A stretch of DNA of 64,000 nt, taken from the NCBI RefSeq assembly GCF_044647545.1, contig NZ_CP172818.1; one strand, written 5' to 3'. The notes under the pieces were generated by a model. It was not told the origin of the DNA, made no database searches, and saw only the letters and a list, made by a program, of their open reading frames with translations. This document shows positions 4,978 through 32,473 of this stretch, piece by piece. Positions within the stretch are counted from its first letter, which is position 1, and each line of letters begins with the position of its first letter. Position numbers and translations under genes: made by a program. The stretch comes from Escherichia coli. Lineage in GTDB: Bacteria > Pseudomonadota > Gammaproteobacteria > Enterobacterales > Enterobacteriaceae.

Positions 4978-5726
4978 GATGCACTCCCGACTGGCGTTTT
5001 CAGCCCGGAATAGTTCAACAGGCACCAGTTAGCCAGCGTCAGTATCTCTTCAGCCGCCAGCGCATCACTGCGGTATTCACCGACTGGTTGCTTAGCCGCC
5101 AGGCATTGAGCCATCGCTTCATCACGATGAATGAGTATTGGCAGTAATCGGCGCTGGCTTTGCAACCAAAGCTGGTAAATATCGTCCTGAACCTGACTGC
5201 CGATACGGAAGTCATTAATCAAAATATGCGCGCCATCCGGCAGCGCTTGCTGATGCAGTCGGATATGGCAGTTGGCATCCACATTGACGATTGCCAGCGA
5301 GTGATCGCACAAACTCAGCAGCTGGTGGGTTATCTGTGAGGCATCACGCGGTAAGTCAATTAAAATCCACTGGTAACGCCCGCTGGCTTTTAGTTGCTGT
5401 AAGCCGGAGCAAATATCGCTCAGCCGGGTTTGCCAGTGCTGTGGATTTTCTTGTTCTTCAATGGATAACTGACCAAAAGGCAGCAAATCGAGCTGCGAGG
5501 TATAGCGCAACCCGGCGTCACGCCAGTCCTGGCCATCCAGCATAGCTCTGGCCCAGCCCTGACGGTGGGTAAAATCAACGTTAAATGACAGGCGCAACAA
5601 GTTGTCCGGGCAGGCATCGACCACCAGGACATTTTCTCCCAACATTTGTAATGACCAGGCTAATGCGGCGGTGATGGTTGTTGTCCCCACGCCTCCCCGC
5701 ACCCCCTGCAATCCCAGTACGGCCAT
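4974..5726 (-). CDS. bcsQ: Cellulose biosynthesis protein BcsQ (MinD/ParA-like ATPase); intact reading frame
   Basis: 250-aa ORF starting MAVLGLQGVRGGVGTTT (deviant Walker A); overlaps bcsA start by 4 nt; codon 6 is TTG (plus-strand caa at 5709-5711), so there is no premature stop. Confidence 0.85.
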   Translation of the reverse strand: MAVLGLQGVRGGVGTTTITAALAWSLQMLGENVLVVDACPDNLLRLSFNVDFTHRQGWARAMLDGQDWRDAGLRYTSQLDLLPFGQLSIEEQENPQHWQTRLSDICSGLQQLKASGRYQWILIDLPRDASQITHQLLSLCDHSLAIVNVDANCHIRLHQQALPDGAHILINDFRIGSQVQDDIYQLWLQSQRRLLPILIHRDEAMAQCLAAKQPVGEYRSDALAAEEILTLANWCLLNYSGLKTPVGSAS

Positions 5727-9633: not shown

Positions 9634-9718
9634 GAACGAAAAAGGCCGCAGAGTTTCCCCCTGCGGCCTGATCCGGGCGCAAATTGCCATTACGGCAGCC
9701 TGACGCCCACATGACACG

Positions 9719-9826
9719 TTACTTCCGCTTATTCAGCCAGTTCACGATCAGACTGGCAAGAATGCCAGCAATGACCGGAGCCGCTAAATCATGCCAGAAG
9801 GCCATGCCCAGCTCTGCGAGCGTCAT
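9719..9826 (-). CDS. ldrD: Type I toxin LdrD (35-aa small toxic membrane peptide)
   Basis: Minus-strand reading MTLAELGMAFWHDLAAPVIAGILASLIVNWLNKRK (35 aa) from ATG at 9826 to stop at 9719; matches the Ldr toxin family sequence. Confidence 0.8.
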   Translation of the reverse strand: MTLAELGMAFWHDLAAPVIAGILASLIVNWLNKRK

Positions 9827-9871
9827 ATAGCCGCCTGAGTTGTAATGACAACGTTTCGCGGCTATTCTTGA

Positions 9872-9938
9872 GTGGTCTAGAGTCAAGATTAGCCCCCGTG
9901 ATGTTGTCAGGTGCATACCTGCAACGTGCGGGGGTTTT
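9872..9938 (+). ncRNA. rdlD: Antisense antitoxin RNA RdlD (approximate boundaries)
   Basis: Plus-strand GC hairpin (cccccg...cggggg, 9893-9934) followed by TTTT lies in the ldrD 5' leader, where the Rdl antisense RNA is expected; the 5' end is a guess. Confidence 0.4.
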
Positions 9939-10301
9939 CTCTCTCCAGCAACCAATGCCACCAGGGATAAAGCCCCCGCAACATTGCGCCTCACCGGAAC
10001 CTTTCCGGCTTGCCACTGATTCTACGATTGCTTTTTACCGTCAGCACCCGGCAATCTTCCTCATTGCGTGATGCATTCCAGCTTAATTTCTTTATTTGCA
10101 ATAGTTGCAGTTCATATCCGGGCTGACTCCAGACTGGTAGTGAAATGCGCATTTTTGTAGAATTGCGCCTCCTCGCGACCTCCCCAGTGAATCTGTTGCC
10201 TCATTTTTTACATACTGCGTATTCGACTTCTCCACCTGTTGCGCAAGAGAAACTGGGTTTATTCATTTTTGCGAGGCCGACTTCTTTCTGGACAGGACTT
10301 T

Positions 10302-14509: not shown

Positions 14510-15529
14510 TTACTTCTTATGACGAATACGCGGGTTCACCACGCCGTACAGCAAATCGACCAGCAGGTTGACGAGGATAATCATCGTCGCCACCAGCAAT
14601 ACGCCGCCCTGCACTACCGGATAATCGCGGCGTTGCAGTGCGTCAATCAACCAGCGCCCCAGACCGGGCCACGAGAAGATGGTTTCAGTCAGAATCGCCC
14701 CCGCCAGCAATGTTCCCACCTGCAGGCCGATAACGGTCACCACCGGCAGCATCGCGTTACGCAGCGCATGGACGATAATCACCCGCATCCGGGTAAGACC
14801 TTTGGCACGCGCGGTGCGGATATAATCTTCGCCCAGCACTTCCAGCATCGAGGAGCGCGTCATACGCACAATGACCGCCAGCGGGATGGTACCCAGCACA
14901 ATGGCGGGTAGGATCATATGGGCGACGGCATCGATAAAGTTACCGTCTTCACCCCAGATGGCGGTGTCGATCAGCATAAAACCGGTTAACGGATTGGAAT
15001 CATCGAGGAACACCATGTCGCTCACACGACCGGAGACAGGCGTCAGGTTCCAGTGCACCGAAACCAGCATGATCAGCATCATGCCCCACCAGAAAATTGG
15101 CATCGAGTAGCCGGTCAGCGCCAGGCCAACCGCTGTGTGATCGAAAATGGAACCACGTTTAACCGCAGCCAGCACACCAACCGGAATACCGACTGCCGTC
15201 GCAAAAATCATCGCGCAGACGCCAAGTTCCAGCGTAGCCTGAAAGCGCGGCACGAACTCTTCCCATACCGGAATTCGGCTTTTCATGGAAATGCCTAAAT
15301 CACCGTGCATTACGCCCCAAATGTAATGGAGATACTGCTGCCACATCGGTTTATCTAAGCCGAGTTCAGCCAGCAATTGCGCGTGACGCTCTGGGGAGAT
15401 CCCACGCTCGCCCGCCATGATCATCACCGGATCGCCCGGGATCATGTGGACAAAGGCAAATGTGAGAAGGGTAATACCGATAAACGTGGGGATGACGAGT
15501 CCCAAACGTCGGAGAATAAACTGCAACAT
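14510..15529 (-). CDS. dppB: Dipeptide ABC transporter permease DppB
   Basis: 339-aa polytopic membrane ORF in the expected operon position. Confidence 0.9.
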   Translation of the reverse strand: MLQFILRRLGLVIPTFIGITLLTFAFVHMIPGDPVMIMAGERGISPERHAQLLAELGLDKPMWQQYLHYIWGVMHGDLGISMKSRIPVWEEFVPRFQATLELGVCAMIFATAVGIPVGVLAAVKRGSIFDHTAVGLALTGYSMPIFWWGMMLIMLVSVHWNLTPVSGRVSDMVFLDDSNPLTGFMLIDTAIWGEDGNFIDAVAHMILPAIVLGTIPLAVIVRMTRSSMLEVLGEDYIRTARAKGLTRMRVIIVHALRNAMLPVVTVIGLQVGTLLAGAILTETIFSWPGLGRWLIDALQRRDYPVVQGGVLLVATMIILVNLLVDLLYGVVNPRIRHKK

Positions 15530-15602
15530 AACCCGGATTCTCTATAATGACCCGCAGCCTGGAACTGCGTGTCTGTATTGCTCACAAATCAATTCCCGCC
15601 TT

Positions 15603-15672
15603 TGTGGGACAGGGAATGAAGTATTGCTGCCGGATGGCGCTGCACGCAGAGGCACAGCGCCACCGGGTATGG
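15603..15672. repeat. REP-like palindromic stem-loop in the dppA-dppB intergenic region
   Basis: Imperfect palindrome ccggatggcgctg...cagcgccaccgg in the 150 bp spacer downstream of dppA; a candidate REP or attenuating hairpin. Confidence 0.45.
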
Positions 15673-15679
15673 CTTTTAA

Positions 15680-17287
15680 TTATTCGATAGAGACATTTTC
15701 GAAGTGATGTTTGCCTAATGGATCAACCACATAGCCTTTAACTTCTTTGCGTACCGGTTCAAACACGGTGGAGTGAGCGATGATCAGTGCCGGAGCCTGA
15801 TCGTGCATCACGACCTGTGCTTGTTTGTACAGTTCAACACGTTTATTGTGGTCGTCGGTAGCACGCGCCGGTTGAATCAGATCTTCAAACGGTTTGTAGC
15901 ACCATTTTGAGTAGTTGGAGCCTTGTTCAGAGGCGGCGCAGCTGAACAGGGTGGCGAAGAAGTTATCCGGATCCCCGTTATCGCCAGTCCAGCCCATCAT
16001 TACCGTCTGATGCTCGCCATCTTTCGCACGCTTGAGGTACTCACCCCATTCGTAGGTGACGATTTTGGCCTGCACGCCCACTTTCGCCCAGTCTGCCTGA
16101 ATCATCTCCGCCATGCGGCGAGCATTCGGGTTATACGGACGTTGTACTGGCATTGCCCACAGGTCGATGGAGAAACCTTTTTCCAGACCCGCTTCTTTCA
16201 GCAAGGCTTTCGCTTTTTCAGGATCGTAAGTGTAGTCCTGAACGTCGTCGTTATAGCCCCACATGGTTGGCGGGATCAGGTTTTTCGCTGATACGCCCGC
16301 GCCCTGATAAACTGCTTTGATGATGGCGTCTTTGTTCACCGCGTAGGTCAGAGCCTGGCGAACTTTCACGTCATCCAGTGGTTTTTTCTGCACGTTATAC
16401 GAGAGATAACCGACATTCAGCCCCGGCATTTCCATCAGGTTGATGGATTTATCCTGCTTCATGCGGGCGATATCTGCCGGGTTCGGGTACGGCATCACCT
16501 GGCATTCGTTCTTCTGCAATTTCGCGTAACGCACGGAAGCGTCAGGAGTAATAGAGAAGACCAGCGTATCGATCTTCGGTTTGGTGCCCCAGTAGCCATC
16601 AAACGCTTTATAGCGAATACGGGAATCTTTCTGGTACTGCTGTAACTGGAACGGGCCGGTACCGATTGGGTTGAGATCCAGTTTTTCCGGTGTACCGGCT
16701 TTCATCATCGCGTCAGCATATTCTTTTGACAGAATAGAGGCGAAGTCCATTGCCAGGTCAGCGAGGAACGGCGCTTCCGGGCGAGTCAGCACAAACTGAA
16801 CGGTGTTATCGTCCACCTTTTTCACTTCGCTGATCAGCTCCGGCAAGCCCATGCCTTCAAAGTATTCGTAGCTGCCGCCAGAAACTTTATGGTACGGGTT
16901 TTGCGCGTTTTTCTGACGATCGAACGAGAACACCACGTCATCGGCGTTCAGTTCGCGCGTCGGTTTGAATTCTTTATTGTCGTGCCACTTCACACCTTTA
17001 CGCAGATGGAAGGTATAGGTTTTACCGTCTTCGCTGACTTCCCACTTTTCAGCGAGGCCCGGGATCACTTCGGTGGTGCCGATTTTAAATTCAACCAGAC
17101 GGTTATAAAGCGGTACGGAAGAGGCGTCATAGGTGGTGCCGGAGGTAAACAGCTGCGGGTTAAACCCTTCCGGAGATCCTTCTGAGCAATAAACCAGAGT
17201 TTTAGCCTGAACACTTGCTGCGACGGTCATAGCCACCAGGCTGAGACCAAGCTTCAGCATCCCTGACTTTTTCAAGGAAATACGCAT
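15680..17287 (-). CDS. dppA: Periplasmic dipeptide-binding protein DppA
   Basis: 535-aa ORF with N-terminal signal peptide (MRISLKKSGMLKLGLSLVAMTVAASVQA); solute-binding protein family 5. Confidence 0.9.
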   Translation of the reverse strand: MRISLKKSGMLKLGLSLVAMTVAASVQAKTLVYCSEGSPEGFNPQLFTSGTTYDASSVPLYNRLVEFKIGTTEVIPGLAEKWEVSEDGKTYTFHLRKGVKWHDNKEFKPTRELNADDVVFSFDRQKNAQNPYHKVSGGSYEYFEGMGLPELISEVKKVDDNTVQFVLTRPEAPFLADLAMDFASILSKEYADAMMKAGTPEKLDLNPIGTGPFQLQQYQKDSRIRYKAFDGYWGTKPKIDTLVFSITPDASVRYAKLQKNECQVMPYPNPADIARMKQDKSINLMEMPGLNVGYLSYNVQKKPLDDVKVRQALTYAVNKDAIIKAVYQGAGVSAKNLIPPTMWGYNDDVQDYTYDPEKAKALLKEAGLEKGFSIDLWAMPVQRPYNPNARRMAEMIQADWAKVGVQAKIVTYEWGEYLKRAKDGEHQTVMMGWTGDNGDPDNFFATLFSCAASEQGSNYSKWCYKPFEDLIQPARATDDHNKRVELYKQAQVVMHDQAPALIIAHSTVFEPVRKEVKGYVVDPLGKHHFENVSIE

Positions 17288-17857
17288 TATTCTGCTCCAA
17301 TTGTGATGTTTGTTGTTTTAACCCTTTGCAGTGGGTTGTCGCCGCCTGACCTTTTTTGTTTTTTGCCCGGTCGGGTCAACGTTATGAGGTGGGGATGCCG
17401 TACTAATTAACATCAGTGTAACAGTGCGGATCCTCCAGAAAATGCCCCTCGTGACCTACAATCTGTCAACAGAATGTGAAAACGTCAATACAGCCAACCG
17501 GGATTTACACCAACGGTGAGAATCAACAAACAAAGATTAAAAAAACTTCAAACAGCTATTTGCAGCAGAGAAATTTGTGCTACGCCAACACAACCAGAAC
17601 AATCAGCTTAATATTTAGCAACATTTGGTGATTAAGTTTTATGCATTTAATGAAAAAAATCTGAGGTAAAGGTGGATATCTGAGCGATTAATACCATGAA
17701 CGCTAAAACGCACAGGGGAAAATGCCAGCGCCAGCCATAAGTAACGCAAAAAAAGATTTAAGCAAATATAAAAAAAGACAATGGTTTCTGTCACAAATCC
17801 GTTAATGGATAGTGAGATATGGGGCGCAAATTTGGCAGGGAAATGTGTGGTGTGTAG

Positions 17858-17960
17858 ATCGGATAAGGCGGTCGCGCCGCATCCGACAATGGGCCGGTAC
17901 ATTTGCCTGATGCGACGCTGACGCGCCTTATCAGGCCTGCATCGAGTCGAACCTCCTTGT
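17858..17960. repeat. BIME/REP element (two inverted REP units)
   Basis: ggataaggcggtcgcgccgcatccgaca followed by gcctgatgcgacgctgacgcgccttatcaggcctgc; matches the REP consensus pattern (GCCGGATGCGGCG...CTTATCAGGCCTAC). Confidence 0.6.
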
Positions 17961-18139
17961 CCCCCGATAAGACCGGTATTTCAATCACCACATGAGACTT
18001 CAGACGCATACAAGCTCTGCATCAATTAGCATGCTAATTTCGCCTTTGCAGTGACAGCTGATATACACGTGCTTCTGGCCAGCCCTGCGGCCTTTAACAG
18101 GTCAGACTGGCAGTGTCCGCACCTCAGGTTCTGGATGAC

Positions 18140-18690
18140 TTTCGCTTTTTCTCCAGCTCCAGGCCCTTTTTTTCCAGGAGATGCTCCTGCATGGCTTTCA
18201 GATATTCATTTTTGGGCGGAAAATACGCGGGTCTTTTTTTCTCTCTTTCCGGGTTCTGTTTTCCTCGTTTTTATGGGTGTCATCAAAAAGGGGTTTGCTT
18301 TTCTCCTTCCTGCGCCTTAAAAAGGCCTCATCACCAGATTTTTTGGTTCCTTTTTTCCCATTTTTTAACCGGTTTTGGGTGGGGAAGTTTAAACCGGGGG
18401 GCGCCCGGGGGAGAGACACAATAACCGAGAGGATAAAAAAACACGCAAAGTTTTTTTTTTGGAGAAAAGAGCGCTGGTGTGTGTGTACAATGGTGTGAGA
18501 GGGGGGAGGAGAAAAAAAAAAAATATAGTGTGGGAGGGGGGGGTGTGAAAGAGGTAATATTGTTGTGGTAGAGAAGATATGACGACATGAGGGGAGGTGA
18601 TGTTTTATGGGGGGGTGTTTTTTTTAATATATGTGTGTTATATACTGTGCTTTTAGATGTGAGATAATGTTTGATATATGGGCAGTTCAT
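18140..18690. other. Anomalous low-complexity, homopolymer-rich, C-depleted tract (non-coding; probable artefact or foreign/synthetic insert)
   Basis: Runs of T (up to 10), A (12) and G (8), GT dinucleotide repeats, near absence of C on the plus strand after about 18470, and no plausible ORF; composition unlike the flanking E. coli sequence. Confidence 0.6.
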
Positions 18691-18765
18691 GGCGCGTCTT
18701 ATCAGGCCTACGTCGAATCGAACCTCCCCGCCCCCGGGGGTTCTCTTCCTCATGAGCTACAGATG

Positions 18766-18794
18766 CAAAAAAGCCTGCTCGTTGAGCAGGCTTT
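18766..18794 (-). terminator. Rho-independent terminator of proK
   Basis: Hairpin gcctgctc-gttg-agcaggc followed by a T-run on the minus strand, 8 nt downstream of the tRNA 3' end. Confidence 0.7.
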
Positions 18795-18801
18795 TCGAAT
18801 T

Positions 18802-18878
<77 letters not shown>

Positions 18879-18969
18879 AATGCGGGGCGCATCTTACTGC
18901 GCAGATACGCCCTCGTCAATCCCTTAATAGCAAAATGCCTTTTGATCGGCGAGAAAGTCAGCAGGCTTC

Positions 18970-20661
18970 TTAGTTAGCCGCTGCCTCTTTTGCCTGCGGG
19001 ATGTGGCACCAGTTGTTGTTTTCGTTAATTCCACCATCCGGTGAAGTATAGCCAAGACACCCCATGATGGTGTCGTACAGCTCTACATGACGGCGTGGCA
19101 CTTTCATGTCGGCTTCTTTTTTCAGCTGCGCAAATGCCTGCGCATTGACCGGATTTTCCAGATATTTATCCGACATCCAGACCATCATCGGCACACGGAA
19201 CTGTTCCGGCGGTGCCAGTTCACGCGGCGTGCCGTGCAGGTGCTCGCGTTCATTAATTGACTCACCGTGGTCAGCTGCATAGAACACAATCGCTTTCTTA
19301 TCGCGAACCTGATCAATCACGCTGGAAATAAAGTGATCCACATAGGTCACCGAGTTGTCGTATGAGTTGATCATCTGCGCTTTGGTACAGCCGCTATCAA
19401 CACCAATACATTCCGGCTTCCACTGCGCAAAGCTGCGCGGGTAACGCTGGGTGTAGTTAAAGTGTGAGCCTTTGGTATGCAGAATGATCAGATGCTTACC
19501 ATCCGGGTTGCGCCCCAGCGACTGCTGCATTTCGTCTACCAGCAACATATCATCTACCGGTTTGCCACGGTTACGTGGCTCCGCACCAATCTGCTCACGA
19601 TAAGCAATGTTGTCCGCCATCGTATTGCTGTAGAACCACATTTCGCTTTGCATAGCGTAGAGATCAGAAGTGAATCCTAACTGCTTCAGCACCGCGAAAA
19701 TATTCTGTTCTTTTAATGTGCGCTGCGGATTATCTTCTGCTCCACCCTGACGTACAAACATGCAACGCAGTGAGAGTTTGGTTGCAGTATCACAGGAGTA
19801 ACCACGGAACGCCGCCAGATTTTTCTCCTGAGCCAGTTTCGGTGTGGTATTGCGTTCATAGCCGAAAATGCCCATATGATCCCAGCGCGTGGTTTCACCA
19901 ATAATGAAAACGACATATGTATCATCAACGTTTTGTGGAGCCTGGTACGTAAACTTCTTCGCAGGGTTAAGGAGAGAATTGTTATCGGAAGATTCATCGA
20001 CCCGCGCCCAGGCATAAAGACCTAATGCCGAAAGCCAGTTTGATGGCAGATAAGAGTTCGCGACGACGCCGCCATAACTCGGCAAATCAACACCTGTCGC
20101 CCTCTCCACTTTCTTCTGCTGGATATCCAGCAAACGAATCGGTGCCCAAACCATAATACCTGCCAGTACGACGACCGCCAGGCTGCGAATACGCTGCCCT
20201 GGGGTTCGCAGTTGTCGGAGCAAGGTGTAACGACAGCGGTTATTCCAGATAAGGATAAGAGGCAACGCGCTTACGGCGATTAACCAGAGAATAAAGTTCA
20301 GACCAACAACTTCTTTTGACAGGTCGATATCGGTGGTCATGACGGATGCGATGATGCCATAACCAATGACTACATTAAGGAAGGTCATGTAATAGCTGGC
20401 ACCTGCGGAAAAGAGCACCACCAGCGATGCCAGAATACGCCAGCTGCGGCGGCCAAACAGCGAAAGAAGACGTAGTAAAAAGAAGGTCACCAGTACGGTG
20501 GCAGCCAGTTCAACAACAGCAGAAATGCCTTTCCAGACGGTAAAATCGTGCGCATAGCTGCCGAAACGGCGGTAAAAAACCGCGCCATTCATAAAAAGGC
20601 CAATATAGATTGCAAGCAAAAAGCTCAGCTTCTGCTGTGTAATCGATTTGATGTATCTCAT
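18970..20661 (-). CDS. eptB: Kdo2-lipid A phosphoethanolamine transferase EptB
   Basis: ORF 18970..20694 trimmed to [14 protein letters not shown] (563 aa); N-terminal TM helices plus a sulfatase-type catalytic domain. Confidence 0.85.
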
Positions 20662-20882
20662 GCAAACAAACCCTGGACAAACAGGTGATAACACCCTGCT
20701 TAGCGGCTTTTCAGGCCCGGCAGGGGAAAAGTGCGGAGGTAGTCAGATAAGTAAAATCTACACGCGCGAATAAGTAGACCACAGCAAAGGGAAAAAGTGT
20801 GGGGAAAGAGTGTGCATGAAGCACAAATTTACAAAAATGCAAGTTTGAAAAGAGACTTTAGCGTTACAAAAAGCAGTAAAAA

Positions 20883-20912
20883 GGGCCAGTTAACTGGCCC
20901 AAATTTTACGCG
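20883..20912 (-). terminator. Rho-independent terminator downstream of yhjX
   Basis: Hairpin gggccagttaactggccc followed by a T-run on the minus strand. Confidence 0.55.
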
Positions 20913-20984
20913 TCATTGTTTATACATTGCGTTGAAGCGTTTGATTCACACTAAGGCTAAAGCCCAGTAGCTCGCGGCAGATGA

Positions 20985-22193
20985 TTAAAGGGAGCCATGC
21001 GCCTCACGCAACATTTTCTGCTCTGGCTGACGAATCGTCGTAGAGAGCGCCAGTGACAGAATCAGCAGGGCAAAAATGACGTAGAAAGTCACATAGAAGC
21101 CGCCAAACAGTGAGGCGATAATCGACCCACAAATGCTGCCGATACCGAAACCGAGATAAATCACACCGTAGTTTTTCGCCAGGTTATTGAGGCCGAAGAA
21201 CTCACTGACCAGTGACGGGAACACCGTGATAGTGCCGCCAAAGTTAAACGCCACGCAGGCAATCGCTGCAAAGAACGTCACTGCATTCAATGGTGCAAAC
21301 AGCAGGGCCGCCATACCCACCAGCGATATCACCTGACCAATGGTGATAACACGGATACGGGCGATTTTGTCAGACAGAATACCCAGCACCAGACGACCAG
21401 AAAGGTTGGCGATGGAAATAACCGTCACAGCATTGGCTGCGGAAATTGCATCAAGATGCGCCAGACTTTGAGCGATATCTTTCGCTACACCAATCACATA
21501 CAGACCACTCATGCACGCAGTCAGGAACATAACCGCTAACATCCAGTACTGCGGTTTACGCATCGACTCTGCCAGGGTGTAGTCCTTCTCCACCACACCA
21601 TTGCTGGTTTTCACTTCCTGCTTCGGCGCATCTTTCATTAACGTTGCGCCAAAGACAATCATCACCAGTACAATCGCGCCCCAAATAACAAAGGTTTTTT
21701 CCAGACCCACCGTTTCGAGCAGGTGCGTGTCGATAAATTTAAAACCCAGGCTGCCCAGACCATAAGAACCGATAGCAAAAGCAGAGATAAGTCCCTTACG
21801 CTCCGGAAACCACTTCACGCAGTTAGAGAGCGTCAGCAGGTAACCCGCGCCATCCGCCAGACCGACCAGCACACCGGCGCTTAACCACAGCATCATCAGG
21901 TTGTTGGAATGCGCGGTCAGGAAGAAGCCTAATCCCAGCAAAATGCCGGAAGCCATGGTGACGCGTTTAACGCCAAAACGTTCCTGCAATTTGCCCGCAA
22001 CAGAAGATGAAATTGCCAGCCCCAGACTTAACAAGCCGAAAGAGAAAGCAACCTGGCTTACAGGAGCCCCCAGCTTGGCAGAAAGCGCACCGTTAAACAG
22101 ACTCCAGGTATAAACCGACCCCAGAGCAAACTGGGTAATGATAGTACCGATGAGTGTCAGCCAGCGAGTACGCTGATAATTTGAAGGTGTCAT
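20985..22193 (-). CDS. yhjX: MFS transporter YhjX (oxalate/formate antiporter-like)
   Basis: ORF 20985..22238 trimmed to MTPSNYQRTRW (402 aa); 12-TM MFS topology. Confidence 0.85.
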   Translation of the reverse strand: MTPSNYQRTRWLTLIGTIITQFALGSVYTWSLFNGALSAKLGAPVSQVAFSFGLLSLGLAISSSVAGKLQERFGVKRVTMASGILLGLGFFLTAHSNNLMMLWLSAGVLVGLADGAGYLLTLSNCVKWFPERKGLISAFAIGSYGLGSLGFKFIDTHLLETVGLEKTFVIWGAIVLVMIVFGATLMKDAPKQEVKTSNGVVEKDYTLAESMRKPQYWMLAVMFLTACMSGLYVIGVAKDIAQSLAHLDAISAANAVTVISIANLSGRLVLGILSDKIARIRVITIGQVISLVGMAALLFAPLNAVTFFAAIACVAFNFGGTITVFPSLVSEFFGLNNLAKNYGVIYLGFGIGSICGSIIASLFGGFYVTFYVIFALLILSLALSTTIRQPEQKMLREAHGSL

Positions 22194-22421
22194 GGCAGTA
22201 TTCCTGCAGTAATAAAAAGGAAAAATCTCTGCTGACAACCATAACGAAGTGCGCTTTATGCCTGGGGAAAAACGGCATGAAATGCCATCAGAACGGAATG
22301 AAATGCATTAGTTCAGGAATGAATGACTCGACAATTATTCGCCAAATTTATTATTTAGTAAGTTAGTCCCCACTATCGCCACATTAGTTGTTATTTATGG
22401 GTTTCAATTGTATCTATAACG

Positions 22422-23120
22422 TTAAAATCTGGCACTAACCCCCATCGTATACAGATAGTCGCTATTGTTAGTGGTATTTTCTGCCTGAGATAGCGCCGCA
22501 TAGGCAGCAATATTTTGATTGAGCAACATATCAGCGCCTACGGTGACATCCAGCCAGTTGCCGTTCTGGTTTGTCGCCGTCATCCGGCTCAGGCCTGATT
22601 GCGCCTTCCAGATATTCTCGCCAAATTGCTGGTTATAGCTGATTTGCGCCCAGGGTCGGAGATCGCCAAGCCGGGAGTCAACACGCCAGCCTAAAGTACT
22701 CACGCTGGCATGCCATAACGGATCAGTCAGCGTGGTAGTACTGTCGCCAAACTCGTTATACATCGAGGTGGTTGTGCCATCGTAATGTAATGCCGCGACC
22801 GGACCGGTTGTAACCTGTTGATATAAAGGAAAATTCCACCCCATACTCATACTACTGGTGACATCCACAGGGGTTTCTTCCGCCAGATTGACTTCCAGTC
22901 CCAGCGCCCTTTGGCTACTTTGAATACGTTGCGACAAAATATCGTTGTAATCAGGTTGATGATCGCTATCCCAGGTGTAACGCTCTGTGGAATGTCCGGG
23001 TTGCGTATCAACGATATATTCTTGTTGCCAGGCGTAAGCTGTGTTGAGAAAAAAGGCACTGATTACCACGCTCACCAGCAGGCTTAGCTGCCAGCGACCA
23101 CCGCTTTTTTTTATGATCAT
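22422..23120 (-). CDS. yhjY: Uncharacterized outer-membrane protein YhjY (autotransporter beta-domain-like)
   Basis: About 232-aa ORF with an N-terminal signal-like segment and C-terminal aromatic residue (ends ...MGVSARF) typical of beta-barrel proteins; start codon choice is uncertain. Confidence 0.65.
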   Translation of the reverse strand: MIIKKSGGRWQLSLLVSVVISAFFLNTAYAWQQEYIVDTQPGHSTERYTWDSDHQPDYNDILSQRIQSSQRALGLEVNLAEETPVDVTSSMSMGWNFPLYQQVTTGPVAALHYDGTTTSMYNEFGDSTTTLTDPLWHASVSTLGWRVDSRLGDLRPWAQISYNQQFGENIWKAQSGLSRMTATNQNGNWLDVTVGADMLLNQNIAAYAALSQAENTTNNSDYLYTMGVSARF

Positions 23121-23277
23121 TAACACGACTCCAGGGAAGAGCCGAATTCGGCAATATTATTGTCATTGTATGAAGGATATCGGGCATAGTAGCCCTGTAT
23201 TAAATATTGACTTTTTCACCGATGCGTCAAGAAAAGCGGCTGAAATTTTTACGATCGGGTACATAGCGAGGGAAAGT

Positions 23278-23841
23278 ATGGAACGTTGCGGCTGGGTGAG
23301 TCAGGACCCGCTTTATATTGCCTACCATGATAATGAATGGGGCGTGCCTGAAACTGACAGTAAAAAACTGTTCGAAATGATCTGCCTTGAAGGGCAGCAG
23401 GCTGGATTATCGTGGATCACCGTCCTCAAAAAACGCGAAAACTATCGCGCCAGCTTTCATCAGTTCGATCCGGTGAAGGTGGCAGCAATGCAGGAAGAGG
23501 ATGTCGAAAGACTGGTACAGGACGCCGGGATTATCCGCCATCGCGGGAAAATTCAGGCAATTATTGGTAATGCGCGGGCGTACCTGCAAATGGAACAGAA
23601 CGGCGAACCGTTTGCCGACTTTGTCTGGTCGTTTGTCAATCATCAACCACAGGTGACACAAGCCACAACGTTGAGCGAAATCCCTACATCTACGCCCGCC
23701 TCCGACGCTCTATCTAAAGCCCTGAAAAAGCGTGGTTTTAAGTTTGTTGGTACCACAATCTGTTACTCCTTTATGCAGGCATGTGGGCTGGTGAATGATC
23801 ATGTGGTTGGCTGCTGTTGCTATCCGGGAAATAAACCATGA
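23278..23841 (+). CDS. tag: DNA-3-methyladenine glycosylase I
   Basis: ORF 23041..23841 trimmed to MERCGWVSQDPLYIAYHDNEWGVP (187 aa); conserved Tag N-terminus. Confidence 0.9.
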   Translation: MERCGWVSQDPLYIAYHDNEWGVPETDSKKLFEMICLEGQQAGLSWITVLKKRENYRASFHQFDPVKVAAMQEEDVERLVQDAGIIRHRGKIQAIIGNARAYLQMEQNGEPFADFVWSFVNHQPQVTQATTLSEIPTSTPASDALSKALKKRGFKFVGTTICYSFMQACGLVNDHVVGCCCYPGNKP

Positions 23842-24278
23842 TTCGGGAAGCGCAACGTTCAGAACTCCCCGCGATCCTCGAACTGTGGCTGGAAAGTACA
23901 ACCTGGGGGCATCCCTTTATAAAAGCGAATTACTGGCGTGATTGCATTCCGCTGGTGCGGGATGCCTATCTTGCCAACGCGCAAAACTGGGTCTGGGAAG
24001 AAGACGGTAAGCTTCTCGGTTTTGTCAGCATTATGGAAGGCCGATTTCTGGCTGCAATGTTTGTCGCACCGAAGGCCGTCAGACGCGGTATTGGTAAGGC
24101 GCTAATGCAGTATGTGCAGCAGCGCCATCCCCATCTGATGCTGGAGGTTTATCAAAAAAATCAACCGGCGATAGATTTTTACCAGGCGCAGGGTTTTCAC
24201 ATTGTCGATTGCGCATGGCAGGATGAAACCCAACTACCCACCTGGATTATGAGCTGGCCGGTGGTTCAAACGCTGTAA
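23838..24278 (+). CDS. yiaC: GNAT-family N-acetyltransferase YiaC
   Basis: 146-aa ORF overlapping the tag stop by 4 nt; acetyl-CoA-binding motif RRGIGKALM. Confidence 0.8.
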
Positions 24279-26580
24279 GTGTCAGTTCCGGACCGTTGTA
24301 TTTTTCCAGCCATGCCAGCGCCGTATTACCCGCACAGCCATTCCCCAGCCGCGAGCTGGGGAGATCTTTGGTCAGAACGTTCACCGCGCCGTTTTTACAA
24401 ATACCGTCAGCGGTTAAATCCAGATCCGGCCATGCCCCTTCATGAATGCAAATCACGCCAGGTTTAATTCCCTCGCTAATGACCGCTCCGGCAAGAATTT
24501 GCCCGCGTGCGTTCCACAGCCGAACAGTATCGCCATCTTGTATGCCGCGCGCCTGAGCATCGTCAGGATGAATGGTGACAGGCTCACGGTTTGCCACCGC
24601 GTACAATTCGCGCAGAGAACTGTAATTCAGCTGGCTGTGCAGACGATGTGCCGGATGAGCAGAAAGTACCTGCAACTGTTCCGGTTCGGCATTGCCCTGC
24701 CATTCGTCCGGCTCCAGCCACATTGGATGCCCCGGGCAATCCGGATAAGCGTAATCAGCAATACGCTGCGAGAAGATTTCAATCTTGCCGCTGGCGGTTT
24801 TTAATGGATGCGCCTGCGGATCGCGGCGAAAATCGGCGAAGCGAATAAACCGCTCGCTGTCCGGGTTTTCCGGCATCTCAATTAACTGGTTGGCTTCCCA
24901 TAACTCAGCAAATGGCGGCAATTCAACCTGCTGGCTTGCCCCGCGCTGCCGGGCAACGTTATAAAACGTTTCCAGCCATTGCAGCTCACTTTTTCCTTCC
25001 GTAAACCGCGCATAGCCGCCCTTCTCCCAACGTTCACTCAACTCGGCAAAGACATCAAAATCATTACGCGCTTCATAACGTGGAGGCACCACTTGCTTCA
25101 TCGGCACCAGATGCTGATTACTGTAATCGCCGGTCATGGTGAGATCATTACGCTCAAACGAAGTGGTCGCAGGCAGAACGATATCCGCGTGTTTCGCCGC
25201 AGCCGTCCAGAAGCATTCAGAGATCACCACCAGCTCCGGTTTTTGCCAGGCACGGATCAGGCGATTGGTATCCTGATGATGAGTAAAGTTGGCACCGCCC
25301 GCCCACCAGATAAAACGAATATCCGGGAAATGTCGGTCCATACCGTTATGTTGATATGCGCCACCAGGGTTTTCCAGTGCTTCAACAATGCGGGCGACAG
25401 GGATTTTATCTACCGCATCGGTGCCACCCGGCAAGCTGCCCTGCATGGAAGAGAGCACCGCAGCGCGGCGCGTGGGGTTACCACCATTGGCAAAATGGTA
25501 AGAAAGACCAAAACCGCCGCCGGGTGTGCCGATTTGCCCCAACATTGCCGCCAGCGTGACGAGCATCCAGTGTTTTTGCTCACCAAACTGTTGGCGCTGC
25601 ATTCCCCAGCCTGCCATCAGCATGGTGGTATTTTGGTGGAAAATAGCCGCCAGCTCGCGGATTTTCGCTGCGCCAACACCACAAATCTCTGCCGCCCATT
25701 CGGCGTTTTTCGCTATACCGTCACTCTCGCCCAGCAAATAAGAGGCGAAGACGGCATAACCTGTGGTGCAACGCGCCAGAAACGCTTCGTCGTGCCAACC
25801 ATTTTCCACCAGCGTATGGGCGATCCCCAGCATCAACGCAACATCGGTGCCCATGTGCGGAGCCACCCATTCCATTTTATCGCCAAAGAAATCGACGGTT
25901 TCCGATCGCATTGGATCAATGCAGATCAGCTTTTTCCCGCTGTCACGCAGTGCGGAAAAGTAAGAAAGCCCCTGCTCATCGGATGCATTCCACGCAATTT
26001 TCAGCGTATTGAGTGGGTTAGCACTCCATAGCACCACGACATCGCTATGTTCCAATACCAACGGCCAACTGGTTTGCTGTTGATAAACTTCGCTGCCCCC
26101 CACGACATACGGCATGATCGCCTGTGCTGCACCGGTCGAATAATCCCCCAGATGCCCGGTATAACCGCCTGCAAGCGCCATATAGCGTTGTAATAATGTC
26201 GAGGCCTTATGCAGCACGCCGTTTGAACGCCAGCCGTAGGAACCAGCAAAAATCGATGCCGGACCATAAGCCTCACGAATACGTTTATGTTGATGGTGAA
26301 TAAGCTCCAGCGCCTCATCCCAACTCACGCGAACAAATTCATCCTGCCCACGAATGCCTTGCGGATTTTCCGGTGACGCAAGAAAGCCTTTGCGCACCAT
26401 TGGAAATCGCACCCGCGTATTGCTGTGAACCTGGTCGCGAACCGCGCTCTGCAAGGAGTTTTCCATTCCTGTGGCTAACGCGCCACGCGAGCTAAACACG
26501 GTTTCGCCGTCGGTTTCAACCAGCATAGGCCCCCAGTGGGCGGCAGTCAGAACGGAATATCGTGAGGATGAGTTGGCCAA
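24247..26580 (-). CDS. bisC: Biotin sulfoxide reductase BisC (molybdopterin oxidoreductase)
   Basis: 777-aa ORF; DMSO-reductase-family architecture. Confidence 0.9.
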
Positions 26581-26732
26581 ACCGAAGACTCCTGAAAGGT
26601 TAGATGTATTGAGCAGTTAAATATTACTTACAAATTTCCGAGTATTCCCAGGAATAATCTTCATGCTCACGCGGCATAATCTCCCGCCACGGAACCCGTG
26701 GCAAAGAATAAAAAGGTTATTAAGGATTAACA

Positions 26733-27392
26733 ATGAAGAAACGTGTTTATCTTATTGCCGCCGTAGTGAGTGGCGCTCTGGCGGTATCTGGCTGTACAAC
26801 TAACCCTTACACCGGCGAACGCGAAGCAGGTAAATCTGCTATCGGCGCAGGTCTGGGCTCTCTCGTTGGCGCGGGTATTGGTGCGCTCTCTTCTTCGAAG
26901 AAAGATCGCGGTAAAGGCGCGCTCATTGGCGCAGCAGCAGGCGCAGCTCTGGGCGGCGGCGTTGGTTATTACATGGATGTGCAGGAAGCGAAGCTGCGTG
27001 ACAAAATGCGCGGCACTGGTGTTAGCGTAACCCGCAGCGGGGATAACATTATCCTCAATATGCCGAACAATGTGACCTTCGACAGCAGCAGCGCAACCCT
27101 GAAACCGGCGGGCGCTAACACCCTGACCGGCGTGGCAATGGTACTGAAAGAGTATCCGAAAACGGCGGTTAACGTGATTGGTTATACCGACAGCACGGGG
27201 GGTCACGACCTGAACATGCGTCTCTCCCAGCAGCGTGCGGATTCCGTTGCCAGCGCGTTGATCACCCAGGGCGTGGACGCCAGCCGCATCCGTACTCAGG
27301 GCCTTGGCCCGGCTAACCCAATCGCCAGCAACAGCACCGCAGAAGGTAAGGCGCAAAACCGCCGTGTAGAAATTACCTTAAGCCCACTGTAA
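26733..27392 (+). CDS. yiaD: OmpA-family lipoprotein YiaD
   Basis: 219-aa ORF; lipobox AVSGC; glycine-zipper region; C-terminal OmpA-like domain (NRRVEI). Confidence 0.85.
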   Translation: MKKRVYLIAAVVSGALAVSGCTTNPYTGEREAGKSAIGAGLGSLVGAGIGALSSSKKDRGKGALIGAAAGAALGGGVGYYMDVQEAKLRDKMRGTGVSVTRSGDNIILNMPNNVTFDSSSATLKPAGANTLTGVAMVLKEYPKTAVNVIGYTDSTGGHDLNMRLSQQRADSVASALITQGVDASRIRTQGLGPANPIASNSTAEGKAQNRRVEITLSPL

Positions 27393-27495
27393 TCCCTTTC
27401 ATGTCAGGTGATGCAGAAATCACCTGGCATTCTTCAGTTTTCCTTCATCATATTTCAGGCTAAGGTGATCGCCTTATCAGTGAATGGAGAGAAGC

Positions 27496-28470
27496 ATGAA
27501 GCCGTCCGTTATCCTCTACAAAGCCTTACCTGATGATTTACTGCAACGCCTGCAAGAACATTTCACCGTTCACCAGGTAGCAAACCTCAGCCCACAAACC
27601 GTCGAACAAAATGCAGCAATTTTTGCCGAAGCTGAAGGCTTGCTGGGTTCAAATGAGAATGTTGATGCCGCATTGCTGGAAAAAATGCCGAAACTGCGTG
27701 CCACATCAACGATCTCCGTCGGCTATGACAATTTTGATGTCGATGCGCTTACCGCCCGAAAAATTCTGCTGATGCACACACCAACCGTATTAACAGAAAC
27801 CGTCGCCGATACGCTGATGGCGCTGGTGTTGTCTACCGCTCGTCGGGTTGTGGAGGTAGCAGAACGGGTAAAAGCAGGCGAATGGACCGCGAGCATAGGC
27901 CCGGACTGGTACGGCACTGACGTTCACCATAAAACACTGGGCATTGTCGGGATGGGACGGATCGGCATGGCGCTGGCACAACGTGCGCACTTTGGCTTCA
28001 ACATGCCCATCCTCTATAACGCGCGTCGCCACCATAAAGAAGCAGAAGAACGCTTCAACGCCCGCTACTGCGATTTGGATACTCTGTTACAAGAGTCAGA
28101 TTTCGTTTGTCTGATCCTGCCGTTAACGGATGAGACGCATCATCTGTTTGGCGCAGAACAATTCGCCAAAATGAAACCCTCCGCCATTTTCATTAATGCC
28201 GGACGTGGCCCGGTGGTTGATGAAAATGCACTGATTGCTGCATTGCAGAAAGGCGAAATTCACGCCGCCGGGCTGGATGTCTTCGAACAAGAGCCACTGT
28301 CCGTAGATTCGCCGTTGCTCTCAATGGCCAACGTCGTCGCAGTACCGCATATTGGATCTGCCACCCATGAGACGCGTTATGGCATGGCCGCCTGTGCCGT
28401 GGATAATTTGATTGATGCGTTACAAGGAAAGGTTGAGAAGAACTGTGTGAATCCGCACGTCGCGGACTAA
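27496..28470 (+). CDS. ghrB: Glyoxylate/hydroxypyruvate reductase B (2-ketogluconate reductase)
   Basis: ORF trimmed to [15 protein letters not shown] (324 aa); D-2-hydroxyacid dehydrogenase NAD-binding motif GIVGMGRIG. Confidence 0.85.
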
Positions 28471-28519
28471 GCCGCGACTGCGTGGAGTAAAGCCCGATAA
28501 TCGCTCGGGCTTTTACTCT

Positions 28520-29230
28520 TTATTGGGTTGCAGTAACTGCTGTAGTCCAGGCCTGATTAAACGCCTGATGCTGTGCCGGTAATGGCGCAATCAGTTTGTT
28601 ATATTCACTTGCCTGCTGTGACGTCGGGAACTGGATGCCATTTGCGACAAAGCTCACCTGAGTACCTTGCTGAGCAATGTAGTCTCCAACCATCACCAGT
28701 TGTTGCGTGAAAGTTTGTGCAGCCGGAATCAACGGTTGCAATGCATCAGCTGGCGTCGTTACCACTTTGGTGAATGCCTGATCAAAGACCGGTTTCAGGT
28801 CATCACTCTGTTTTAACGCAGAGTGTGCAGCATCGGCCTGCAACTTCGCATTTTGCAGCTGTTGCGCCAGCACACCCAGCGAACCGTTCATTTCACGCAG
28901 TGGGCCGCTTTGCGTAACGTAATCCTGCGGTACGCGAATTGCGTTAACGCTGTCTACAACCGGGCGCAGACCGGAATCCATCGCCTGATTCACCTGCTGT
29001 GAATAACCATACAGAATCGCGTAATCAGAGACAAAAGGACCAAACTGTTTTTTCTGATCGGCAGTCAGGGTTGGTAGACGTTCACCGCTACGCATCACTG
29101 TATTCTGCAGGAAGTCGATAAACGCTTTACGCTGATCGCCTTCTTTATCAAAACACCCACTCAGGCTAACTACCATTAATAACGCCGCAAGAGGCGCAAA
29201 CCAGCGAGAGCAGGACTTTCCTGTCGCCAT
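28520..29230 (-). CDS. yiaF: Uncharacterized lipoprotein YiaF
   Basis: ORF trimmed to MATGKSCSRWFAPLAALLMVVSLSGC (236 aa); lipobox LSGC. Confidence 0.75.
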   Translation of the reverse strand: MATGKSCSRWFAPLAALLMVVSLSGCFDKEGDQRKAFIDFLQNTVMRSGERLPTLTADQKKQFGPFVSDYAILYGYSQQVNQAMDSGLRPVVDSVNAIRVPQDYVTQSGPLREMNGSLGVLAQQLQNAKLQADAAHSALKQSDDLKPVFDQAFTKVVTTPADALQPLIPAAQTFTQQLVMVGDYIAQQGTQVSFVANGIQFPTSQQASEYNKLIAPLPAQHQAFNQAWTTAVTATQ

Positions 29231-29663
29231 TTTCTTACTCCTTTCACCCAAAAAAAGCGCACAACGACACACGCGTGTCTGACGTGACAAGGATAGTCCA
29301 GGACAGGCTTGCAGGATACCCTTTCTACGTAATCTTCCTGGTAAAATCATGGAGAAAATGAAACAAGGTTAATTTGTTGTTTCATTGTTAAAAAATGATA
29401 GTGCCGTTGCTTTTTTTGTAGCCAGAGATTTACGCCTTCTCAGAACGTTAGATTTTCGAAATCTTTACAAACCGGGAGTGGTAAGAGATATATCGGCATT
29501 TATCAGATCGTTAGGTGGCTATAAGTCACGCTAAATGACTGGCTGAATCGAATCATAGCCAGAGCATGCCCTGACTACACCCCGCTGTGTCTGTTTTTCC
29601 CGACTATTCTTAATGAGCTTCGATGCAATTCACGATCCCGCAGTGTGATTTGAGGAGTTTTCA

Positions 29664-29954
29664 ATGGAATATAAAGATCCAATGCATGAGCTGTTGAGCA
29701 GCCTGGAACAGATTGTTTTTAAAGATGAAACGCAGAAAATTACCCTGACGCACAGAACAACGTCCTGTACCGAAATTGAGCAGTTACGAAAAGGGACAGG
29801 GTTAAAAATCGATGATTTCGCCCGGGTTTTGGGCGTATCAGTCGCCATGGTAAAGGAATGGGAATCCAGACGCGTGAAGCCTTCAAGTGCCGAACTAAAA
29901 TTGATGCGTTTGATTCAAGCCAACCCGGCATTAAGTAAGCAGTTGATGGAATAG
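29664..29954 (+). CDS. yiaG: HTH-type (XRE-like) transcriptional regulator YiaG
   Basis: 96-aa ORF with a helix-turn-helix segment (LRKGTGLKIDDFARVLGVSVAMVKEWE). Confidence 0.75.
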   Translation: MEYKDPMHELLSSLEQIVFKDETQKITLTHRTTSCTEIEQLRKGTGLKIDDFARVLGVSVAMVKEWESRRVKPSSAELKLMRLIQANPALSKQLME

Positions 29955-30038
29955 ACTTTTATCCACTTTATTGCTGTTTACGGTCCTGATGACAGGACCG
30001 TTTTCCAACCGATTAATCATAAATATGAAAAATAATTG

Positions 30039-30234
30039 TTGCATCACCCGCCAATGCGTGGCTTAATGCACATCAACGGTTTGACGTACAGACCATTAAA
30101 GCAGTGTAGTAAGGCAAGTCCCTTCAAGAGTTATCGTTGATACCCCTCGTAGTGCACATTCCTTTAACGCTTCAAAATCTGTAAAGCACGCCATATCGCC
30201 GAAAGGCACACTTAATTATTAAAGGTAATACACT
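30039..30234 (+). promoter_or_regulatory. cspA: cspA promoter (-35 TTGCAT, -10 CTTAAT, AT-rich UP element) and about 160-nt cold-responsive 5' UTR
   Basis: TTGCAT at 30039-30044 and CTTAAT at 30062-30067 with a 17 bp spacer; a long leader precedes the ATG at 30235, consistent with the thermosensing cspA 5' UTR. Confidence 0.7.
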
Positions 30235-30447
30235 ATGTCTGGTAAAATGACTGGTATCGTAAAATGGTTCAACGCTGACAAAGGCTTCGGCTTCATCACT
30301 CCTGACGATGGCTCTAAAGACGTGTTCGTACACTTCTCTGCTATCCAGAACGATGGTTACAAATCTCTGGACGAAGGTCAGAAAGTGTCCTTCACCATCG
30401 AAAGCGGCGCTAAAGGCCCGGCAGCTGGTAACGTAACCAGCCTGTAA
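30235..30447 (+). CDS. cspA: Major cold shock protein CspA
   Basis: 70-aa [73 protein letters not shown]; RNP1 motif KGFGFI and RNP2 motif VFVHF. Confidence 0.95.
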
Positions 30448-30474
30448 TCTCTGCTTAAAAGCACAGAATCTAAG

Positions 30475-30502
30475 ATCCCTGCCAAATGGCGGGGATTTTT
30501 TT
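30475..30502 (+). terminator. Rho-independent terminator of cspA
   Basis: Hairpin atccctgcc-aaat-ggcggggat followed by TTTTTTT. Confidence 0.7.
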
Positions 30503-30635
30503 ATTTGTTTATTCAGGAAATAAATAATCGTTCGCGTAATAAAATCTATTATTATTTTTGTGAAGAATAAATTTGGGTGCAATGAGAATGCGCAACGCCG
30601 TAAGAAAGGCGGGAATAACTTCCCGCCGAAGACGC

Positions 30636-30788
30636 TTACTCTTTCAATTTGCAGGCTAAAAACGCCGCCAGCTCATAATTCTCCTGTTTAATATGCAATT
30701 CACACAGTGAATCTCTTATCATCCAGGTGAAAAATAAAAGCGTGAAACAAATCACTATTAAAGAAAGTAATCTATATTTCTGCGGCAT
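30636..30788 (-). CDS. hokA: Type I toxin HokA (Hok/Gef family small membrane peptide); locus disrupted by IS150
   Basis: 50-aa reading MPQKYRLLSLIVICFTLLFFTWMIRDSLCELHIKQENYELAAFLACKLKE; the IS150 left end begins 33 bp upstream of the start codon. Confidence 0.8.
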   Translation of the reverse strand: MPQKYRLLSLIVICFTLLFFTWMIRDSLCELHIKQENYELAAFLACKLKE

Positions 30789-30867
30789 TCCCAGCCTCCT
30801 GTGTTGATTTCCACCGAGTATGTACTGCACCCATTTTGTTGGACGATGAAATGGAATAGCCCCTGAT

Positions 30868-31389
30868 ATGTCAAAGCCAAAATACCCTTTTGAAAAGCGC
30901 CTTGAAGTCGTGAATCACTACTTCACTACTGATGATGGTTACAGGATCATCTCGGCACGTTTTGGTGTCCCCCGAACCCAGGTCAGGACATGGGTTGCCC
31001 TCTATGAAAAACATGGAGAAAAAGGTTTAATTCCCAAACCTAAAGGTGTTAGTGCTGATCCAGAGTTGCGTATTAAGGTCGTGAAAGCTGTGATCGAGCA
31101 GCACATGTCCCTTAATCAGGCTGCTGCTCACTTTATGCTTGCTGGTAGTGGTTCTGTAGCCAGGTGGCTGAAGGTTTATGAAGAGCGCGGAGAAGCTGGT
31201 TTACGCGCGCTCAAGATTGGCACCAAAAGAAACATTGCAATATCAGTTGATCCAGAAAAAGCGGCATCAGCATTGGAGCTGTCAAAAGACCGACGTATTG
31301 AGGATCTTGAAAGGCAAGTTCGATTTCTTGAAACGCGGCTTATGTATCTAAAAAAGCTGAAAGCCTTAGCTCATCCCACGAAAAAGTGA
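30868..31389 (+). CDS. insJ: IS150 transposase OrfA (InsJ), HTH DNA-binding protein
   Basis: 173-aa ORF MSKPKYPFEKRLEVVNHYFTTDDGYRII...; IS3-family OrfA. Confidence 0.9.
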   Translation: MSKPKYPFEKRLEVVNHYFTTDDGYRIISARFGVPRTQVRTWVALYEKHGEKGLIPKPKGVSADPELRIKVVKAVIEQHMSLNQAAAHFMLAGSGSVARWLKVYEERGEAGLRALKIGTKRNIAISVDPEKAASALELSKDRRIEDLERQVRFLETRLMYLKKLKALAHPTKK

Positions 31390-32237
31390 AAGTACTCAAC
31401 GAGCTAAGGCAGTTTTATCCTCTTGATGAGCTTCTCAGGGCTGCGGAGATACCGCGCAGTACGTTTTATTACCATCTAAAGGCTCTCAGCAAGCCTGACA
31501 AGTATGCGGACGTTAAAAAGCGTATTGGTGAGATTTATCACGAGAATAGAGGCCGATACGGATACCGTAGGGTAACGCTGTCTCTTCATCGAGAAGGGAA
31601 ACAGATTAACCATAAAGCTGTTCAGCGCCTGATGGGAACCCTCTCACTTAAAGCAGCGATTAAGGTCAAGCGATACCGCTCTTACAGAGGAGAGGTAGGG
31701 CAAACCGCCCCTAATGTTCTCCAAAGAGATTTCAAGGCTACGCGGCCAAACGAGAAGTGGGTTACCGATGTTACTGAATTTGCAGTCAATGGGCGCAAGC
31801 TGTATTTGTCTCCAGTAATAGATCTCTTCAACAACGAAGTTATTTCTTACAGCCTTTCGGAAAGACCAGTGATGAACATGGTTGAGAATATGCTCGATCA
31901 GGCATTCAAAAAGCTTAATCCTCACGAGCATCCTGTTCTGCACTCTGACCAGGGATGGCAGTATCGTATGAGAAAATATCAAAATATTCTTAAAGAACAT
32001 GGTATTAAACAAAGCATGTCCAGAAAAGGCAATTGTCTGGATAATGCTGTGGTGGAGTGTTTCTTTGGAACCTTAAAGTCGGAGTGTTTTTATCTTGATG
32101 AGTTCAGTAATATAAGCGAACTGAAGGATGCTGTTACGGAATATATTGAATACTACAACAGCAGAAGAATTAGCCTGAAATTAAAAAGTCTGACTCCAAT
32201 TGAATATCGGAATCAGACCTATATGCCTCGTGTTTAA
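31386..32237 (+). CDS. insK: IS150 transposase OrfB (InsK), DDE integrase catalytic domain; expressed as an OrfAB fusion by -1 frameshifting
   Basis: 283-aa ORF in the -1 frame relative to insJ; DDE-type motifs; slippery A_AAA_AAG at 31349-31355 within the overlap region. Confidence 0.85.
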
Positions 32238-32473
32238 CTGTCCAACTTTTTGGGGTCAGTACACACTTTGATTTATAGTCAGGTGGGGCTTTTCTCTGTC
32301 TGCCTTTCGGTGAATACCTGAGACAAACAGTCTCAAGCACCCGTGGCTATTCTAGCTTAATAAGTTCGTTTCTTCTCCTTGATATAATCCTAAAAAAATC
32401 TCATAAAATTAATATATGAGACAATCTTTATTCAGCAGAAGATTATTAAAGGTTGCTCTATTATTTAGCGATA

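Follow-up and report, generated by a model that had tools for sequence, protein, structure and literature searches.

IS1397 belongs to the IS3 family, IS150 subgroup, and targets REP/BIME palindromic units in Escherichia coli. The element is tabulated at 1432 bp with TGGC/TGGC as its target duplication (PMC6963479), and the experimental evidence that it inserts specifically in REPs has been summarised (PMC1525189). With the flanks included in the query, the IS to which the tract described below is related was located at one exact site, between dppA and tRNA-Pro, in 218 complete E. coli genomes. The copy at this site in FDAARGOS_497 (L001) is 1432 bp long with ends TGAACTGAACCCC... and ...GGGGTGCAGTTCA, carries the TGGC duplication on both sides and splits a Z-type REP in two. 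Its two ORFs, orfA (176 aa) and orfB (240 aa), belong to a CDS annotated 'programmed frameshift', and orfB scored 299 bits on NF033516, the NCBIfam IS3 transposase model. In the relatives of the genome studied here an intact copy occupies the locus, bounded by inverted repeats of the form TG...CA; its transposase, of the IS3 family, is split over two ORFs with a frameshift between them and lies on the minus strand. The element appears to be IS1397, a name taken from its 1432 bp, the TGGC target duplication and the REP specificity and not from a reference IS1397 sequence. The complete E. coli genomes that carry this IS have it in 2 places at the median and in 40 at most.

The window analysed was a 64,000-nt stretch of E. 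coli contig NZ_CP172818.1 (assembly GCF_044647545.1), and all positions are given from its first nucleotide. The spacing from the dppA start codon, reaching 17287, to proK, starting at 18802, was 1514 bp, in agreement with the initial annotation, and the ~910 bp given there for MG1655 was measured as 910 bp. MG1655 (910 bp) and SMS-3-5 (743 bp) both represent empty-site alleles with no IS; the window shares its flanks, BIME and proK terminator with both, but its spacing equals neither of these alleles nor the IS-occupied 2179 bp of FDAARGOS_497. The ~600 bp originally counted as extra is therefore extra only against MG1655, which lacks the IS, whereas against the nearest relatives the window is ~665 bp short. 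The landmarks of the spacer are as follows.

15680-17287, minus strand, dppA, 535 aa with no internal stop; DppA is annotated in the aligned records.
17857-17937, unstranded, BIME of two inverted REPs; 63.3 bits on the full Rfam naRNA4 model (RF02564) against a gathering threshold of 59.5 bits.
18766-18795, minus strand, candidate proK terminator, a G+C-rich hairpin followed by T6, read from the sequence and unlisted by a simple terminator scan.
18802-18878, minus strand, intact proK, tRNA-Pro(CGG), called by ARAGORN; 60.7 bits on Rfam tRNA.

The naRNA4 (nucleoid-associated ncRNA/CssrE) match probably reflects the REP pair and not a specific gene. In MG1655 the REP half, the flank, the proK terminator and the first bases of the proK 3' end are partly duplicated over ~131 nt (L009 ~5337-5467 against 5528-5700, with the window counterpart at 18690-18820), which accounts for its 910 bp against the 743 bp of SMS-3-5. 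This duplicate looks like an old duplication or an att-like scar at proK. In the unique flank past the REP, 18712-18727 (minus strand GGAGGTTCGATTCGAC) looks by eye like the T-arm and loop of a tRNA (GGTTCGAWTC). ARAGORN calls nothing there, and the stretch may be left over from a tRNA 3' fragment downstream of proK.

Runs of at least 7 identical bases were counted across the window, and 8 of the 29 lie within 18140-18690, where ~0.25 would be expected for a 551-bp tract that makes up 0.86% of the window (Poisson P ~1e-10). The long T, A and G runs and the GT repeat (near 18479-18490) reported in the initial annotation were found where it had placed them. The eight runs are listed below, the first being the only one of that length that is genuine.

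18167-18173, minus strand, A7 (T7 at 18167 on the plus strand), the sole real homopolymer of at least 7 in the tract and present in the true IS.
18234, T7.
18435, A7.
18451-18460, T10.
18512-18523, A12.
18536-18543, G8.
18609-18615, G7.
18618-18625, T8.

The depletion of plus-strand C was likewise borne out: in 200-nt windows the C content reached a minimum of 2.5% at 18481, the lowest in the 64 kb, against a window mean of 25.9% (sd 4.4%). The eight lowest values of the window all fall at 18381-18521, and no other place comes close. The GC-skew and complexity scan that had been proposed gave skews up to +0.87 to +0.91 in the tract, and the fraction of bases in runs of at least 4 peaked there at 0.395, against a mean of 0.06. 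The low-complexity ORF that had been quoted was recovered at 18181-18498, with the tail FFFWRKERWCVCTMV. All three minus-strand frames of the tract are stop-rich, with an orfA-like translation faintly recognisable, and the ORF survey of the tract found no credible ORF or integrase.

Distant blastn of 18260-18690 against 5,426 complete E. coli genomes aligned the query, at 100% coverage and 72.6-72.9% identity, with a gene annotated as IS3-family transposase in 1,719 of them. Aligned directly to the IS by blastn, the window matched at 78.3% over 669 columns (E = 1e-144) and at 79% over a further 72 columns. The tract had been described as possible synthetic filler or as an unusual non-coding insert; neither description survives, since the tract is a noisy, in-register copy of IS1397. 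Its anatomy is given below, with IS coordinates counted from the dppA side.

17919-17964, plus strand, second copy, at 83%, of the true right REP half and flank found at 18690-18735.
17960-18027, plus strand, IS interior fragment, IS 575-640 at 79%, mixed with flank-like bases.
18039-18689, plus strand, colinear part of the IS, IS 772-1432 (661 bp) at 78%, comprising the orfB start, frameshift region, orfA and terminal inverted repeat.
18682-18693, plus strand, IS end and target duplication, the last 8 IS bases GCAGTTCA followed by TGGC, where perfect sequence resumes.
18690-18735, plus strand, right REP half and unique flank, 100% identical to IS-carrying relatives and matching the SMS-3-5 empty site.

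The left flank equals that of the relatives up to 17921, where the identity of the BIME to them also ends, and garbling begins at 17922. Abnormality had been placed from 18140 onward; the garbling starts more than 200 nt earlier, and 18086-18185 is 98-100% identical to the IS. Between the flanks the window holds 770 bp, against 1435 bp in relatives with the intact 1432-bp IS, so that ~665 bp is missing. IS 1-574 is missing (~555 nt by local alignment), together with a further ~116-130 nt near 641-771.

The window copy resembles IS1397 in its DNA homology, which extends over IS 575-640 and 772-1432, in occupying the same Z-type REP site and in the TGGC that adjoins the IS end. The right junction is canonical (IS end, TGGC, REP half). 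The left junction of a canonical insertion reads TGGC and then the IS end, the relatives showing TGGC/TGGC, whereas the window reads TGAC followed by REP-like sequence. The copy differs from IS1397 in being ~665 bp short, with one end and most of orfB absent, in having no open transposase frame and in diverging by 20-36% along a gradient. It does not reach the full length of ~1432 bp with both terminal inverted repeats, the dppA-side end being absent and the proK-side end being recognisable by its last 8-10 bases only. A DDE (rve) transposase from orfA and orfB joined by a programmed -1 frameshift is not encoded, as stops occur in three frames and orfB is mostly gone. The window copy can be neither a working IS1397 nor one that has decayed naturally.

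The orfA/orfB overlap corresponds to window positions 18130-18158 (FDAARGOS_497 2983-2878), with the A7 placed 9 bp inside. The true IS has a single run of at least 7, at IS position 903 (plus-strand T7, read as A7 on the strand of the transposase), and its placement makes it the probable slippery run for the programmed frameshift. The other seven of the eight long homopolymers in the tract have no counterpart in the true IS.

The position of the tract, 110 bp from the 3' end of a tRNA gene, had suggested a tRNA integration hotspot, and a foreign islet integrated 3' of proK was considered on that basis. Position alone speaks for it. The content is IS1397-derived and includes neither an integrase nor a credible ORF, the bounding repeat consists of REP and flank and not of a tRNA end, the tRNA is intact, and the insertion point is a REP, the known target of IS1397. 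The target is thus the REP/BIME and not the tRNA 3' end, and an islet of this kind is considered negligibly probable.

The nearest relatives (L004-L008, e.g. GCA_028597905.1) were found through an identical BisC protein. They were 100% identical over window 14912-17920 and differed by 1 base across 18682-30820, and the IS was intact in every one of them that covers the site. No match of at least 80% to 18260-18690 was present in 5,426 complete E. coli genomes, and no exact match to the tract in GTDB representative genomes, draft assemblies being covered through protein searches only; these searches contradict the idea that the tract is a conserved native element of some E. coli lineages. Seven ORFs of the tract were absent from a collection of 15 billion proteins, in which such ORFs may have gone uncalled by gene callers, and the 140-aa garbled ORF had no homologue at E <= 0.001. 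Elsewhere the window reads as clean, natural DNA: against SMS-3-5, 32,377 nt aligned with zero gaps, 185 of 222 coding differences fell at codon position 3 with no indels or premature stops, and 209 transitions were counted against 69 transversions.

Identity to the true IS was followed in 50-column bins from 18036, with values of 84, 100, 98, 83, 80, 86, 79, 76, 73, 65, 64, 65 and 68%, and was 100% from 18686. The best stretch, 18086-18185, is 98-100% identical to the IS and the worst, 18486-18685, 64-68%; identity falls with position (Spearman P = 1e-7). The substitutions in the tract comprise 43 transitions and 64 transversions. C was lost at 43 of 143 sites (30%) over the colinear part and at 43% of sites over 18200-18683, whereas G was lost at 20 of 159 sites (13-16%; C against G loss, Fisher P = 2e-4). 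C was gained 3 times in 107 substitutions, and over the final 214 nt the count of C is 37 in the true IS and 8 in the window. The changes were C to T 19, C to G 17, C to A 6, A to G 16, A to T 12 and G to T 10. Wrong bases equalled the true base one position away in 70 of 110 cases, against 52 under the null (P = 2e-4), and this copying of neighbours gives rise to the G8, T10 and A12 runs. Hypermutation of the deaminase type (C to T) or the diversity-generating retroelement type (A only) was rejected, since all four bases are hit and transversions are in excess. No single substitution class dominates, as would be expected of targeted hypermutation.

These data bear directly on whether the tract could be real DNA, in the sense of an IS1397 copy that lost part of its length and afterwards took on heavy mutation in vivo, either as a decaying relic or through local hypermutation. 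Degenerate IS remnants do exist in bacterial genomes, and the tract is both homologous to the IS and in register with it. Natural decay is nevertheless impossible, because ~110 substitutions and many indels in 640 nt stand beside near-undiverged flanks: over 15 kb these show 0-1 differences to relatives with the intact IS, leaving no time for such changes to accumulate. The errors climb fairly steadily and then step to 100% identity exactly at the IS end, the excess of transversions is at odds with the natural 3:1 transition bias of the same window, and the wrong bases copy their neighbours. The strand-specific loss of C to G, T and A alike fits neither deamination nor adenine-specific retroelement mutagenesis, and the tract is absent from all 5,426 complete genomes. 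A real, mutated relic is accordingly rated as highly improbable. In one form of this reading, held to be more improbable still, IS1397 would have undergone a strand-asymmetric, directional hypermutation in vivo, with a load rising over ~500 bp to the element end and preferential loss of C from one strand; a localised mutagenic process of this kind is not known to have been described in E. coli.

The rise in errors with abrupt recovery, the strand-specific loss of C to all other bases and the copying of neighbours point to a decaying signal and not to mutation. As judged by comparison with the relatives and the IS, the tract is very probably not biological but a garbled version, with internal sequence missing, of an IS1397 copy that is most likely intact in the organism. 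The same comparison argues for the read-tail or assembly artefact that had been proposed in place of native DNA. An intact IS1397 is favoured because all examined relatives with identical flanks carry it. At the true locus an intact IS1397 would then lie 634 bp upstream of dppA, inside the Z-type REP, flanked by TGGC and with its transposase on the minus strand.

The tract resembles read-tail artefacts in several ways: accuracy decays in one direction over ~500 nt, homopolymers are inflated, miscalls copy the neighbouring base, one base drops out, recovery is abrupt where coverage by unique sequence starts, and the location is within a multi-copy repeat. The consensus over this repeat may rest on very poor data, namely one low-quality read. 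Such a read would run left to right from ~18040, with its signal decaying over ~500 nt; late in the read, calls would smear into neighbouring bases and the C signal would drop, giving the poly-G, poly-T, poly-A and GT runs, and the read tail would be joined to clean unique sequence at 18686. A dideoxy-type read tail would fit best to the length scale, although only ~150 nt of the putative read are well resolved. The tract differs from a simple read tail in its internal deletions and flank duplicate, and an additional misjoin is required because a tail by itself leaves the missing 555 and 116 bp and the duplicate at 17919-17964 unexplained. On the left side a spurious overlap could have merged flank-like and IS-internal sequence, dropping ~665 bp of the IS, by way of the chance similarity of CTGCAGCGAGTC to CTACGTCGAATC and of CCCCCG. 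We infer both the combination of read tail and misjoin and the type of sequencing technology.

The left side was examined base by base. In the MAFFT alignment, which is approximate here, the bases of 17922-18045 agreed with the right flank only at 28 positions, with the IS only at 40, with both at 36 and with neither at 25. As written, 17915-18060 occurs in no complete genome, the best match having 62% coverage and 73.7% identity. The region contains an in-register CATGAG match at offset 771, and superimposed in-register templates (a mixed trace) are suggestive only. A real microhomology deletion at CGCTG that would have fused the left flank with the interior of the IS was rejected, as its predicted junction mismatches the window. 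A K-12-type second flank copy was tried as the origin of 17919-18060 and fitted no better than a mosaic of right flank and IS; it was rejected also because it is absent from the nearest relatives, despite three agreeing variant bases. A perfect 16-nt palindrome, AATTAGCATGCTAATT, with an SphI site lies at 18023-18040, exactly between the two IS-derived fragments. The true IS lacks it, reading ...CATCAGCATACTTGTCC... there, and the palindrome may be a by-product of the misjoin.

The left junction also allows an artefact of another form, in which the true site is empty with an uninterrupted BIME, as in SMS-3-5, and a stray low-quality read, from an IS1397 copy in a similar REP at another place in the genome, has been spliced in through a REP-to-REP overlap. 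The BIME at 17857-17937 looks complete and exceeds the Rfam gathering threshold, and a 46-nt direct repeat of REP half and flank (D1, 17919-17964 and 18690-18735, spacing 771) encloses the insert. Insertion of this IS into any Z-type REP would give the junction GCAGTTCA-TGGCGCGTCTTATCAGGCC, and genomes commonly hold more than one copy of the IS. The uninterrupted look of the BIME and its passing of the naRNA4 threshold are due to the flank copy at 17919-17964, and no such copy is present in the nearest relatives. The left copy of the repeat is error-laden (83%), and the repeat reaches 25 nt into unique flank, which would not be expected in a read from elsewhere. The IS is present at this site in all examined relatives with identical flanks, besides the 218 complete genomes. 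An empty site is on these grounds unlikely, and the preferred reading remains a garbled copy of an IS1397 resident at the site.

Alteration of the sequence in silico, deliberate or accidental (file handling or consensus polishing), would agree with a tract that is unique to this sequence and with the sharp boundaries of the perfect sequence around it. The copying of neighbours, the dropout of a single base and the gradual gradient resemble decay of a signal and not independent random substitution, and the left mosaic of two real sequences resembles a consensus of misaligned reads; in silico alteration is regarded as very unlikely. In every case, under each of the artefact readings, the tract would not be a native feature.

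With an IS1397 copy garbled in the record, the expected outcome of PCR is reversed. The correct product had been predicted to be ~0.6 kb shorter than the sequence implies; the prediction is now a product ~665 bp longer, for a spacing of ~2179 bp as in FDAARGOS_497. The record misrepresents the dppA-proK spacer: it hides a mobile element that is most likely intact and falls ~665 bp short. Its low-complexity ORFs, such as those of 105 and 140 aa, invite false annotation as genes. It is misleading for IS1397 copy counts, for studies of REP-targeted transposition and for spacer-based typing. There is no new biology in the locus, IS1397 in a REP being well known and common at this site, and its main relevance is to data quality.

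The failure is oddly local, as the rest of the window, including a copy of IS150, assembled cleanly. This intact IS150 lies at 30817-32263 near hokA, encodes orfA (173 aa) and orfB (283 aa) and is oriented as in SMS-3-5. In comparison with L004-L007 it is inverted, with 17 of 1447 bases different and ~43 nt beside it missing, the flanks being otherwise ~100% identical; no complete genome matched the IS150 with its flanks above 99.1%. At ~9636-10036, between bcsG and yhjV, the Ldr/Rdl type I toxin array is ~1.9 kb shorter than in SMS-3-5, where five annotated Ldr genes lie 484 bp apart. The window segment matches several of these units, and the shorter array could be natural copy-number variation or a repeat collapse.
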